From assembly GCF_009931435.1 (NCBI RefSeq), contig NZ_CP043414.1: DNA of 64,000 nt. One strand, 5' to 3'. Numbering within the stretch: position 1 is the stretch's first letter; every line of letters begins with the position of its first letter. The position numbers and the translations under genes are program-made. Below are positions 47,267-52,190 of the stretch, one piece after another. The stretch is from Escherichia coli (lineage in GTDB: Bacteria > Pseudomonadota > Gammaproteobacteria > Enterobacterales > Enterobacteriaceae). The notes beneath the pieces were generated by a model. It ran no database searches, was not told the DNA's origin, and saw only the letters and a program-made list of their open reading frames with translations.

Positions 47267-48334
47267 ATGGATAAGAGTAAGCGCCATCTGGCGTGGTGGG
47301 TTGTCGGGTTACTGGCGGTGGCTGCCGTCGTGGCGTGGTGGCTGTTGCGCCCGGCAGGTGTGCCGGAAGGCTTTGCCGTCAGCAATGGGCGCATTGAAGC
47401 GACGGAAGTGGATATCGCCAGCAAAATTGCCGGGCGTATCGATACCATTCTGGTGAAAGAAGGCCAGTTTGTTCGCGAAGGCGAAGTGCTGGCGAAGATG
47501 GATACTCGCGTGTTGCAGGAACAGCGACTGGAAGCCATCGCGCAAATCAAAGAGGCACAAAGTGCCGTTGCCGCCGCGCAGGCTTTGCTGGAGCAACGGC
47601 AAAGTGAAACTCGTGCCGCGCAGTCACTGGTTAATCAACGCCAGGCCGAACTGGACTCTGTAGCGAAACGTCATACGCGTTCCCGCTCGCTCGCCCAACG
47701 TGGGGCTATTTCTGCGCAACAGCTGGACGACGACCGCGCCGCCGCTGAAAGCGCCCGTGCTGCGCTGGAATCGGCAAAAGCCCAGGTTTCGGCTTCTAAA
47801 GCGGCTATAGAAGCGGCACGTACCAATATCATTCAGGCGCAAACGCGCGTCGAAGCGGCACAAGCCACTGAGCGGCGCATTGCCGCAGATATCGATGACA
47901 GTGAACTGAAAGCCCCGCGTGACGGACGCGTGCAGTATCGGGTTGCCGAGCCTGGCGAAGTGCTGGCAGCAGGCGGTCGGGTGCTAAATATGGTCGATCT
48001 CAGCGATGTCTATATGACCTTCTTCCTGCCAACCGAACAGGCGGGCACGCTGAAACTGGGCGGTGAAGCACGGCTGATCCTCGATGCCGCGCCAGATCTG
48101 CGTATTCCGGCGACCATCAGTTTTGTCGCCAGCGTCGCCCAGTTCACGCCAAAAACCGTCGAAACCAGCGATGAGCGGCTGAAACTGATGTTCCGCGTCA
48201 AAGCGCGTATCCCACCGGAATTACTCCAGCAACATCTGGAATATGTCAAAACCGGTTTGCCGGGCGTGGCGTGGGTGCGGGTGAACGAAGAACTTCCGTG
48301 GCCTGACGACCTTGCGGTGAGGTTGCCGCAATGA
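47267..48334 (+). CDS. yhiI: HlyD-family membrane fusion protein YhiI
   Basis: About 355 aa from [22 protein letters not shown]-terminal TM anchor, coiled-coil region; stop overlaps the rbbA start. Confidence 0.82.
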
Positions 48335-51066
48335 CGCATCTGGAACTGGTTCCCGTCCCGCCTGTCGCGCAACTGGCGGGCGTGAGCCAGCATTATGGAA
48401 AAACTGTTGCGCTGAACAATATCACTCTCGACATTCCGGCCCGCTGTATGGTCGGGCTGATTGGCCCGGACGGCGTCGGGAAGTCGAGTTTGTTGTCACT
48501 GATTTCCGGTGCCCGCGTCATTGAGCAGGGCAACGTGATCGTGCTGGGCGGCGATATGCGCGACCCGAGGCATCGCCGTGACGTCTGCCCGCGCATTGCC
48601 TGGATGCCGCAGGGACTGGGCAAAAACCTCTACCACACCTTGTCGGTGTATGAAAACGTCGATTTTTTCGCCCGCCTGTTCGGTCACGACAAAGCGGAGC
48701 GGGAAGTCCGAATTAATGAGCTGCTGACCAGCACCGGGTTAGCACCGTTTCGCGATCGTCCGGCAGGTAAACTCTCCGGCGGGATGAAGCAAAAACTGGG
48801 GCTGTGCTGTGCGTTAATCCACGACCCGGAATTGTTGATTCTTGATGAGCCAACAACGGGGGTTGACCCGCTCTCTCGCGCCCAGTTCTGGGATCTGATC
48901 GACAGTATTCGCCAGCGGCAGAGCAATATGAGCGTGCTGGTTGCCACCGCCTATATGGAAGAGGCGGAACGCTTCGACTGGCTGGTAGCGATGAATGCCG
49001 GAGAAGTACTGGCGACTGGCAGCGCCGAAGAGCTGCGGCAGCAAACGCAAAGCGCCACGCTGGAAGAAGCATTTATAAATCTGTTACCGCAAGCACAACG
49101 GCAGGCGCATCAGGCGGTAGTGATCCCACCGTATCAACCTGAAAACGCAGAGATTGCCATCGAAGCGCGCGATCTGACCATGCGTTTTGGTTCCTTCGTT
49201 GCCGTTGATCACGTCAATTTCCGCATTCCACGCGGGGAGATTTTTGGCTTCCTTGGTTCGAACGGCTGCGGTAAATCCACCACCATGAAAATGCTTACTG
49301 GACTGTTACCCGCCAGCGAAGGTGAGGCGTGGCTGTTCGGGCAACCGGTTGATCCAAAAGATATCGATACTCGCCGTCGGGTAGGCTATATGTCGCAGGC
49401 GTTTTCGCTCTATAACGAACTCACCGTGCGGCAAAACCTTGAGTTACATGCCCGTTTATTTCACATCCCGGAAGCGGAAATTCCCGCAAGAGTGGCTGAA
49501 ATGAGCGAGCGTTTTAAGCTCAACGACGTTGAAGATGTTCTGCCGGAGTCATTGCCGCTCGGCATTCGCCAGCGGCTTTCGCTGGCGGTGGCGGTGATTC
49601 ATCGCCCGGAGATGTTAATCCTCGATGAGCCTACTTCTGGCGTCGATCCAGTGGCGAGGGATATGTTCTGGCAGTTAATGGTCGATCTTTCGCGCCAGGA
49701 CAAAGTGACCATTTTCATCTCCACCCACTTTATGAACGAAGCGGAACGCTGCGACCGCATCTCACTAATGCACGCCGGAAAAGTGCTTGCCAGCGGTACA
49801 CCGCAGGAACTGGTTGAGAAACGCGGAGCCGCCAGTCTGGAAGAGGCATTTATCGCCTATTTGCAGGAAGCGGCAGGGCAGAGCAACGAAGCCGAAGCGC
49901 CGCCTGTGGTACATGACACCACCCACGCGCCGCGTCAGGGATTTAGCCTGCGACGTCTGTTTAGCTACAGCCGTCGCGAAGCACTGGAACTGCGCCGCGA
50001 TCCGGTACGTTCGACGCTGGCGCTGATGGGAACGGTGATCCTGATGCTGATAATGGGTTATGGCATCAGTATGGATGTGGAAAATCTGCGCTTTGCGGTG
50101 CTCGACCGCGACCAGACCGTCAGTAGCCAGGCGTGGACGCTCAATCTCTCCGGTTCCCGTTACTTTATCGAGCAGCCGCCGCTCACCAGTTATGACGAGC
50201 TTGATCGTCGGATGCGTGCGGGCGATATCACGGTGGCGATTGAGATTCCACCCAATTTCGGGCGCGATATCGCGCGTGGTACGCCTGTGGAACTCGGTGT
50301 CTGGATCGACGGTGCGATGCCCAGTCGTGCCGAAACGGTAAAAGGTTACGTGCAGGCCATGCACCAGAGCTGGCTACAGGATGTGGCGAGTCGGCAATCC
50401 ACGCCCGCGAGCCAAAGCGGGCTGATGAATATTGAGACACGCTATCGCTATAACCCGGACGTAAAAAGCCTGCCAGCGATTGTTCCGGCGGTGATCCCGC
50501 TTCTGCTGATGATGATTCCGTCAATGCTAAGCGCCCTTAGCGTGGTGCGGGAAAAAGAGTTGGGGTCGATTATCAACCTTTACGTGACTCCCACCACCCG
50601 TAGCGAATTTTTGCTTGGCAAACAGCTACCGTACATCGCGCTGGGGATGCTGAACTTTTTCCTGCTCTGCGGTCTGTCGGTGTTTGTGTTTGGCGTGCCG
50701 CATAAAGGCAGTTTCCTGACGCTCACTCTGGCGGCGTTGCTGTATATCATCATCGCCACCGGAATGGGGCTGCTGATCTCCACCTTTATGAAAAGCCAGA
50801 TTGCCGCCATTTTCGGTACGGCGATTATCACGTTGATCCCGGCGACGCAGTTTTCCGGGATGATCGATCCGGTAGCTTCGCTGGAAGGTCCAGGACGTTG
50901 GATCGGCGAGGTTTACCCTACCAGTCATTTTCTGACTATCGCCCGCGGGACGTTCTCGAAGGCGCTGGATCTGACGGATTTATGGCAACTTTTTATCCCG
51001 TTGCTGATAGCCATTCCACTGGTGATGGGCTTAAGCATCCTGCTGCTGAAAAAACAGGAGGGATGA
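48331..51066 (+). CDS. rbbA: Fused ABC protein RbbA (two ATPase domains plus C-terminal permease)
   Basis: 911 aa; two Walker A motifs ([18 protein letters not shown]) and two LSGG signatures, then ABC-2 type TM domain. Confidence 0.88.
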
Positions 51067-52190
51067 TGCGCCATTTACGCAATATTTTTAATCTGGGTAT
51101 CAAAGAGTTGCGCAGTCTGCTTGGTGATAAAGCGATGCTGACGCTGATTATTTTCTCGTTTACGGTGTCGGTGTATTCGTCAGCGACCGTCACGCCAGGA
51201 TCGTTGAATCTGGCACCGATCGCTATTGCCGATATGGATCAATCGCAGTTATCGAACCGGATCGTTAACAGCTTCTACCGCCCGTGGTTTTTGCCCCCGG
51301 AGATGATCACCGCCGATGAGATGGATGCTGGGCTGGACGCCGGGCGCTATACCTTCGCGATAAATATTCCGCCTAATTTTCAGCGTGATGTCCTCGCAGG
51401 ACGCCAGCCGGATATTCAGGTGAACGTCGATGCCACGCGCATGAGCCAGGCATTCACTAGCAACGGTTATATCCAGAATATTATCAACGGTGAAGTGAAC
51501 AGCTTTGTCGCGCGCTACCGTGATAACAGCGAACCGTTGGTATCGCTGGAAACCCGCATGCGCTTTAATCCGAACCTCGATCCCGCGTGGTTTGGCGGGG
51601 TGATGGCGATCATCAACAACATTACCATGCTGGCGATTGTGTTGACCGGATCGGCGCTGATCCGCGAGCGTGAACACGGCACGGTGGAACACTTACTGGT
51701 GATGCCGATAACGCCGTTTGAGATCATGATGGCGAAGGTCTGGTCGATGGGGCTGGTGGTGCTGGTGGTGTCGGGATTATCGCTGGTGCTGATGGTGAAA
51801 GGTGTACTGGGCGTACCGATTGAAGGCTCGATCCCGTTGTTTATGCTGGGCGTGGCGCTCAGTCTGTTTGCCACCACGTCAATCGGCATTTTTATGGGGA
51901 CGATAGCGCGTTCAATGCCGCAACTGGGGCTGCTGGTGATTCTGGTGCTGCTGCCGTTGCAAATGCTTTCCGGTGGCTCCACGCCGCGCGAAAGTATGCC
52001 GCAGATGGTGCAGGACATTATGCTGACCATGCCGACGACACACTTTGTCAGCCTCGCGCAGGCCATCCTCTACCGGGGTGCCGGATTCGAAATCGTCTGG
52101 CCGCAGTTCCTGACGTTGATGGCAATTGGCGGCGCGTTTTTCACCATCGCGCTGCTGCGATTCAGGAAGACGATTGGGACAATGGCGTAA
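51063..52190 (+). CDS. yhhJ: ABC-2 family transporter permease YhhJ
   Basis: About 375 aa from [16 protein letters not shown]; start overlaps the rbbA stop; paralogous to the RbbA C-terminal domain. Confidence 0.82.

Follow-up and report, generated by a model that had tools for sequence, protein, structure and literature searches.

A conserved operon for a putative adaptor-coupled ABC-2 exporter, and its uORF-containing leader, at the yhiI-rbbA-yhhJ locus of Escherichia coli

What do the genes yhiI, rbbA, and yhhJ of Escherichia coli make together, and which of the sequences around them belong to the same system? The question arises at positions 47267-52190 of a 64,000-nucleotide (nt) stretch of E. 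coli DNA (contig NZ_CP043414.1; the whole stretch is called the window here), in which the original prediction, made from the letters alone, saw the architecture of a tripartite ATP-binding cassette (ABC) exporter, noted that RbbA has also been described as ribosome-associated, and raised a possible link to the upstream genes yhiL and yhiJ. Our analyses lead us to hold, with good confidence, that yhiY, yhiI, rbbA, and yhhJ constitute a self-contained, anciently conserved operon for an adaptor-coupled ABC-2 (type V) efflux machine.

The identity of the locus is plain: the window interval 47267-52190 is the annotated K-12 operon yhiI-rbbA-yhhJ and is already known. In the list of open reading frames (ORFs), yhiI (47267-48334) encodes 355 amino acids (aa), rbbA (48331-51066) 911 aa, and yhhJ (51066-52190) 374 aa, all on the plus strand. 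RefSeq annotates yhiI, rbbA, yhhJ, and the small gene yhiY here, and the window YhiI, RbbA, and YhhJ proteins are 99.2-99.6% identical to those of K-12; as these genes are existing annotation, there is nothing new in the operon itself. The predicted gene content and coordinates were exact by the ORF list, Pfam, NCBIfam, K-12 identity, and RefSeq, and the operon does lie directly downstream of yhiL/yhiJ, on the same strand and with 365 nt between yhiJ and yhiI. The three genes had also been called translationally coupled, which the junctions bear out: ATGA (48331-48334) holds both the start of rbbA and the stop of yhiI, the TGA of rbbA (51064-51066) and the ATG of yhhJ (from 51066) have an A in common within a TGATG overlap, and the purine-rich, Shine-Dalgarno-like sequences GGTGAGG and AGGAGGG lie directly 5' of the rbbA and yhhJ starts. 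Pfam assigned HlyD_3, HlyD_D23, and Biotin_lipoyl_2 to YhiI, two ABC_tran domains and ABC2_membrane_3 to RbbA, and ABC2_membrane_3 to YhhJ.

The anatomy of the three proteins is that of an exporter. YhiI has a single N-terminal transmembrane (TM) helix (aa 8-26 in a TM scan) with no lipobox Cys, and thus combines a membrane anchor with the lipoyl and beta-barrel domains that define HlyD-family adaptors; its sequence also shows an Ala/Gln-rich stretch (aa ~85-205) between the lipoyl halves. Its best solved relatives in the Protein Data Bank (PDB) are EmrA and MacA, with the EmrA alignment spanning YhiI aa 15-275. By these features YhiI is predicted to be an inner-membrane-anchored periplasmic adaptor (i.e., a membrane fusion protein). 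RbbA scored 1596.6 bits on the NCBIfam equivalog NF033858 (curated cut-off 1050 bits), covering aa 12-910 of 911, and carries in one chain a first nucleotide-binding domain (NBD1, aa ~14-240), a linker of ~35 aa (~aa 241-275), and a second such domain (NBD2, aa ~276-505), followed by an ABC-2 permease with 6 TM helices (aa ~540-911). The ABC2_membrane_3 match covers RbbA aa 569-903 and is given as aa 81-420 for YhhJ. Hydropathy indicated six TM helices in RbbA with a periplasmic loop of ~140 aa between TM1 and TM2; in YhhJ seven windows were flagged, two of them adjacent, which we read as six TM helices in the same topology as the RbbA transmembrane domain (TMD), with a TM1-TM2 periplasmic loop of ~145 aa and 28% identity to that domain. 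As RbbA supplies both NBDs and one TMD and YhhJ the second TMD, one RbbA and one YhhJ together are predicted to make a complete transporter with two NBDs and two TMDs.

The two ATP sites of RbbA differ from each other in a systematic manner. Both NBDs, which lie N-terminal to the membrane domain, have Walker A, Walker B, and signature motifs, but the H-loop His of NBD1 is replaced by Ala (TAY) and NBD2 reads LPLGI instead of LSGGQ, whereas the NBD1 signature (LSGGM), H466 of NBD2, and both Walker B glutamates are retained. The site that pairs the Walker motifs of NBD1 with the signature of NBD2 (LPLGx) is degenerate, whereas its counterpart is canonical. These asymmetric motifs (48331-49845) were invariant in 79/79 orthologues and are common to YbhF. 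By sequence, the RbbA NBDs are nearest to ABCA, DrrA, and NodI-type exporter ATPases. We modelled RbbA with AlphaFold from an 80-sequence alignment; the model reached a predicted local distance difference test score (pLDDT) of 82.6 and a predicted TM-score (pTM) of 0.73, with the TM helices visible, and its top Foldseek match was ABCH-9C, an exporter of type V (E 6e-30 over 687 aligned columns; low whole-chain TM-scores), followed by ABCA3/4/7, ABCG5/8, and tandem-NBD ATPases.

How widely does this arrangement hold? We scanned one genome per species for RbbA and found at least 595 relatives, of which the best 80 loci provide the locus counts given here. These loci range from Escherichia, Citrobacter, Kluyvera, Proteus, and Providencia to Alpha-, Beta-, Gamma-, and Deltaproteobacteria, Verrucomicrobia, and Phycisphaerales (Planctomycetes), with identities of 66-99% for RbbA, 57-99% for YhhJ, and 51-99% for YhiI. 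Salmonella, Klebsiella, and Enterobacter are not among these best 80 of at least 595, which is not evidence of absence from those genera. A YhiI homologue lies immediately 5' of rbbA in 79/80 loci (the exception begins at a contig end) and a YhhJ homologue immediately 3' in all 80; the 4-nt yhiI/rbbA overlap is retained in 56/73 loci, and the rbbA/yhhJ junction falls between -4 and +3 nt in 67/75. The outer membrane enters the picture upstream of the adaptor, where 25/80 loci carry a co-oriented outer-membrane efflux gene (Pfam OEP) at a distance of 15-430 nt (24/70 when only loci with 1.4 kb or more of DNA upstream are counted), many lineages being represented. Together with the Pfam domains, these comparative data across 80 loci support the tripartite exporter architecture that had been predicted. 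TetR regulator genes were found near the cassette in 5 loci, and clustering of 126 upstream ORFs by BLAST and Pfam gave no recurrent partner besides OEP (25) and TetR (5), so gene context yields no clue to the substrate.

Constraint within the species is strong. The pump operon is present in 5413/5426 complete E. coli genomes, and between the window and K-12 its genes show dS of 0.12-0.19 and dN/dS of 0.015-0.03 (i.e., strong purifying selection). With conservation this strong across phyla, a specific physiological cargo is more probable than the opportunistic efflux of drugs. As a separate observation, the pump DNA of the window is 95.6-96.3% identical to that of most E. coli strains (best 98.9%), despite protein identity above 99%, and the segment 41976-52190 represents a lineage that is poorly represented among complete E. 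coli genomes.

Mechanistically, RbbA and YhhJ would form a heterodimeric inner-membrane core in which ATP hydrolysis would take place mainly at the canonical site, and YhiI would oligomerise on the periplasmic loops and reach an outer-membrane channel, so that the substrate would leave the envelope. As no channel gene lies at the E. coli locus, the channel in this species is presumably TolC. Expression would start from the operon's own sigma-70 promoter and would be gated by the yhiY leader, where published work places a premature, Rho-dependent termination. For E. coli, we draw the envelope-spanning step from the OEP-containing orthologous operons and from the similarity of YhiI to EmrA and MacA.

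Several observations weigh against this mechanism. No outer-membrane gene adjoins the cassette in the window or at other Enterobacterales loci, and the loci of E. coli, Pseudomonas, and Rhizobiales are without an adjacent one, so that for these we infer envelope-spanning export. The literature searched contained no report of substrate export, TolC dependence, or a physical complex; overexpression of the RbbA system in an anthocyanin-export screen had small effects only (PMC11026601), and neither YhiI nor RbbA is mentioned in the available part of a major review on tripartite pumps (Chem Rev, 2021). Structurally, whole-chain TM-scores of RbbA to type V transporters are only 0.24-0.47, because the domain arrangements differ, and none of the solved structures matched by Foldseek in the PDB has the NBD-NBD-TMD layout. 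Finally, a truncated form of RbbA has been found to bind ribosomes and to stimulate them in vitro (PMC12096078).

Is the machine envelope-spanning at all? It might instead be a genuine ABC-2 transporter whose adaptor does not bridge the envelope, with YhiI stabilising or gating the transporter and the substrate ending up in the periplasm or in the outer leaflet. The 55/80 loci with no outer-membrane gene at the locus, E. coli included, speak for such an arrangement, as does the lack of any published TolC dependence of YhiI-RbbA-YhhJ. ABC transporters of bacteria without outer membranes can also be accompanied by adaptor-like proteins. We nevertheless regard this arrangement as unlikely: in 25 loci the operon includes a dedicated OEP gene, invariably just 5' of the adaptor gene and in its orientation, which would make no sense unless the adaptor docked an outer-membrane channel, and the nearest solved relatives of YhiI are both TolC-docking adaptors.

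A different challenge to the exporter reading concerns RbbA itself, which could primarily be a ribosome-bound, E-site translation ATPase that releases deacyl-tRNA, its membrane domain and neighbours being secondary (e.g., a tether for ribosomes). This is the view of the Ganoza laboratory literature on RbbA as a ribosomal ATPase, as cited in PMC12096078, and a 2025 study found that RbbA without its membrane domain raised peptide yield in vitro 1.3-2.1-fold and competed with EttA and Uup (PMC12096078). The tandem NBDs also resemble those of ABC-F proteins, and Foldseek aligns the RbbA NBD pair to EttA. However, all data on ribosome activity come from truncated protein, which was used in 2025 because the full-length form is unstable (PMC12096078), and the sole paper on in-vivo interactions and genetics, which had linked RbbA to YhjD, to ribosomes, and to respiration (PLoS One, 2011), was retracted because of concerns about images in June 2025 (PMC12169533). 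The description of RbbA as ribosome-associated therefore stands for the truncated protein in vitro and has lost its main in-vivo support. The protein itself looks otherwise: RbbA has a conserved 6-TM domain, and RbbA-mCherry and RbbA-3xFLAG are distributed in the membrane (PMC6788730), whereas ABC-F proteins are soluble; its NBDs are of the exporter type, with EttA absent from the 60 best PDB sequence matches; and its ~35-aa inter-NBD linker has no Pfam match to ABC_tran_Xtn, the domain of the P-site tRNA interaction motif (PtIM) by which ABC-F proteins are recognised. Moreover, rbbA lies between an adaptor and a permease gene in 79-80 of the 80 loci, often with an outer-membrane channel gene as well. 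We consider a primarily ribosomal role quite improbable, and the comparative data favour a transporter over a translation factor as the main role predicted for RbbA. A secondary interaction with ribosomes may exist, although the locus is better explained by an exporter.

How would the exporter genes be expressed? Upstream of them, on the plus strand, lies a sigma-70 promoter (TAGACA-16-TACTAT with a TG before the -10 hexamer; 46906-46933), the sole sigma-70-like site in 46600-52600. Identical hexamers were given as the constitutive promoter of yhiI-rbbA-yhhJ in a study by genomic SELEX (systematic evolution of ligands by exponential enrichment; PMC3946193), and a homologous TAGACA-N16-TAGTAT is kept in E. 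coli without yhiL/yhiJ (hereafter island-less), E. albertii, Citrobacter, Pseudocitrobacter, and Kluyvera. Between promoter and leader, an insert of ~107 nt (46942-47048, plus strand) is found only in genomes that bear yhiL/yhiJ; island-less E. coli align at 46905-46941 and then from ~47037, with no alignment between these, and the promoter-leader distance is ~25 nt in them and in other genera.

The 5' leader (47049-47266, plus strand), delimited by nucleotide alignment and RNAalifold, is nearly invariant in Escherichia, Citrobacter, and Pseudocitrobacter, and its block 47049-47115 is kept in Kluyvera too. Within it lies yhiY (47091-47195, plus strand; annotated in RefSeq), a small upstream open reading frame (uORF) of 34 codons here and 37 in K-12, whose start has been confirmed by ribosome profiling (10.1101/511675). 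Citrobacter and Pseudocitrobacter conserve both its N-terminal MMTTLLP and its C-terminal FLLIP(D/E)G, and Kluyvera is without the uORF body. From 16 distinct leaders, RNAalifold predicted a long-range helix (47060-47071 with 47222-47234) that encloses yhiY, together with internal hairpins, one of which, the conserved hairpin CCGCTGAAC-GTC-GTTCGGCGG (47198-47218, plus strand), stands just 3' of yhiY and shows compensatory changes between genera in 3/9 pairs. Over the predicted pairs of the leader alignment, 98% of the cells were paired, 5 pairs carried double changes (a count reached by 25/500 shuffles), and the covariation score was 0.138 versus 0.115 in shuffles (reached by 0/500). The yhiY leader is thus probably a structured RNA by prediction, with covariation that is suggestive over three to four genera; a metagenome scan gave 17 non-Escherichia loci, mostly Citrobacter-like, so that the covariation has little phylogenetic depth. 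A scan of 46700-52500 against Rfam (E<=1) returned no match, and a riboswitch candidate listed beside rbbA/yhhJ/yhiI (PMC4448311) was set aside as irrelevant, lying thousands of bases away.

Part of what this leader does has been described before. Adams et al. found a yhiI 5' fusion to be up more than 2-fold in a rho R66S background, and listed yhiY-yhiI as a candidate for uORF-dependent regulation with an RNA 3' end downstream of yhiY (10.1101/2020.07.18.207399); given this published Rho effect and uORF candidate, the leader is already partly known. One could go further and suppose jointly that the leader is a translation- or ligand-sensing Rho switch for the pump and that the RbbA NBDs have real affinity for the E site. 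We regard this combination as very unlikely; if true, there would be direct feedback between translation stress and efflux, and the literatures on a ribosomal ATPase and on a transporter would describe two faces of one system.

Do the genes further upstream belong to the operon? The window carries yhiL (43410-45017; Pfam DUF4049 and DUF6860) and yhiJ (45279-46901; DUF4049), both on the plus strand, with GC contents of 0.33-0.37 versus 0.54-0.59 for the pump genes. The DNA of yhiL/yhiJ was found in 4274/5426 complete E. coli genomes at only 80-95% identity, and ~1,150-1,260 of the 5426 retain the pump while missing yhiL/yhiJ; in ~1,260 genomes, homology to the window starts only at ~47035-47049, and both island-less genomes that we inspected have a divergent allele of yhiM (80% identical) immediately next to the yhiY-yhiI leader. 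One strain retains just a DUF4049 remnant, and yhiL is intact in the window (535 aa) but has decayed to a pseudogene in K-12. A search of 5.8 billion proteins gave 235 relatives in the DUF4049 family, all named ones being from E. coli, E. albertii, and Shigella, and no DUF4049 gene lay within 10 kb of the pump at any of 78 non-Escherichia RbbA loci, against a pump that spans phyla; over all 80 RbbA loci the count of the yhiL-yhiJ pair was likewise 0. In Citrobacter, a yhiN-like gene lies upstream of the pump with a single unassigned ORF between. The dN/dS of yhiJ is 0.21, i.e., a ten-fold weaker constraint than on the pump. Genomic SELEX assigned separate sigma-70 promoters to yhiL and yhiJ, which are H-NS-marked, and to yhiI-rbbA-yhhJ, which is not (PMC3946193), and a table of SOS genes includes yhiJ and yhiL, with yhiI and rbbA not appearing in the text of that paper (PMC11002266).

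These results contradict the link to yhiL/yhiJ that the original prediction had implied: co-occurrence, the check proposed for it, fails both outside and within E. coli, and GC content, constraint, and the separate promoters point the same way. All DUF4049 genes whose context was inspected (E. coli, E. albertii) do lie at this locus, and the pump often stands alone, a pattern better accounted for by one insertion event within the Escherichia lineage than by functional coupling. A consensus terminator scan gave 7 sites versus 6.4 expected, none of them between yhiJ and yhiI and none after yhhJ; with no terminator-like site after yhiJ, some read-through into yhiI may occur. That yhiL-yhiJ-yhiI-rbbA-yhhJ is one co-transcribed module, with the DUF4049 proteins as cargo, modifiers, or regulators, has adjacency on one strand, the exclusive position of DUF4049, and the missing terminator in its favour, yet we dismiss it as highly improbable given the distribution, decay, composition, and promoters described above and the termination by Rho within the yhiI leader (10.1101/2020.07.18.207399). 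The yhiL/yhiJ pair is an unrelated, horizontally acquired, H-NS-marked, Escherichia-only insertion outside the pump.

The same two genes had been called phosphatase-like, a description that motifs and sub-threshold profile matches support weakly. The motifs GDxxDR, GNHE, and HHG are near-invariant in the DUF4049 family alignment and are typical of metallophosphoesterases, but the matches of the YhiL/YhiJ proteins to Pfam Metallophos (E=0.017, 16 bits, cut-off 21.5) and to WipA_Phos, the phosphatase domain of the Legionella effector WipA (E=0.011), are below threshold, and sequence and profile searches of these proteins against the PDB gave no match. An AlphaFold model of YhiJ from a 20-sequence alignment reached a pLDDT of 49 and is thus too poor for a fold search. 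In the spacer between yhiM and yhiL, a candidate LexA box (43224-43239) was rejected as uninformative; the scan for CTGT-N8-ACAG with at most one mismatch returned 22 matches versus 16.4 expected.

Both flanks of the pump operon are hypervariable, with yhhI/Rhs, hicAB-nik, or a phosphotransferase system (PTS) cluster downstream depending on the strain. On the upstream side, yhiM (41976-43127, minus strand) exists in E. coli as two deeply diverged alleles of ~80% DNA identity, the divergent one being that of both island-less genomes inspected. On the downstream side, yhhI (52344-52778, minus strand), an ISEc1/H-repeat transposase gene, is a 5' remnant: only the first 133/378 residues align, and ~0.7 kb that K-12 and strain 2020CK-00188 possess is absent. 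The following segment (52800-56500) has a low GC content (0.34-0.39) and matches, at 99.5% identity, a stretch of strain 2020CK-00188, where the Rhs-associated annotation comprises a YbbC/YhhH family protein, pentapeptide-repeat pseudogenes, DUF6258, an NTF2-fold immunity protein, ybfC, and an RHS core protein.

What follows for the study of this system? The DUF4049 genes can be left out of models of the pump, and the comparative data that favour a transporter weigh more since the retraction of the main in-vivo ribosome paper. Few uncharacterised efflux systems of E. coli would match the predicted pump in conservation, and its yhiY leader would offer a handle for finding the inducing signal and thereby the substrate. 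Only the leader with yhiY and the question of transporter versus ribosome merit more work.

Comparison with known systems places the locus among its relatives. For the leader only, the nearest parallel is mdtU-mdtJI, which likewise has a translated uORF 5' of a transporter operon, a Rho-sensitive 5' untranslated region, and an RNA 3' end shortly past the uORF, and with which yhiY shares a uORF C-terminus conserved between genera; in the yhiY leader, however, conservation of nucleotides and structure equals or exceeds that of the peptide, and the uORF body is absent from Kluyvera. RbbA resembles DrrAB, NodIJ, and the eukaryotic ABCA, ABCG, and ABCH proteins in its NBD-first order and ABC2_membrane fold and finds its best sequence and fold matches among them, but those systems are without a periplasmic adaptor or outer-membrane partner, and none that is solved has two NBDs and one TMD per chain.

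With the ABC-F proteins (EttA, Uup, YbiT, and YheS) RbbA shares tandem NBDs on one chain, NBD pairs that superpose structurally, and, for the truncated form, similar effects on translation in vitro (PMC12096078); it differs from them in its membrane domain, its short linker without ABC_tran_Xtn/PtIM, its exporter-type NBDs, and the adaptor/permease operon in which rbbA is always found. MacAB-TolC (type VII) is likewise an ABC transporter joined to an HlyD-family adaptor and an outer-membrane factor, and YhiI has MacA among its solved relatives. Whereas MacB forms homodimers of a 4-TM, FtsX-like fold, RbbA and YhhJ are predicted to form a heterodimer of 6-TM ABC-2 domains with ABCH, ABCA, and ABCG as structural neighbours.

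The system most like the predicted pump is YbhG-YbhF-YbhS-YbhR. RbbA corresponds to a fusion of YbhF and YbhS, which makes three genes instead of four; E. coli rbbA has the uORF leader in place of an adjacent TetR regulator, unlike CecR-regulated YbhGFSR; and published drug and ion efflux phenotypes exist for YbhFSR only, its use of TolC being assumed (PMC7190983). Against these differences, the two systems are colinear (adaptor, tandem-NBD ATPase, two ABC-2 permeases), with identities of 30% for YhiI/YbhG, 40% for NBD1/NBD1, 41% for NBD2/NBD2, 32% for the RbbA TMD/YbhS, and 25% for YhhJ/YbhR, and YbhF has the same degenerate ATP site, with an NBD1 H-loop without His and LPLGx in NBD2.

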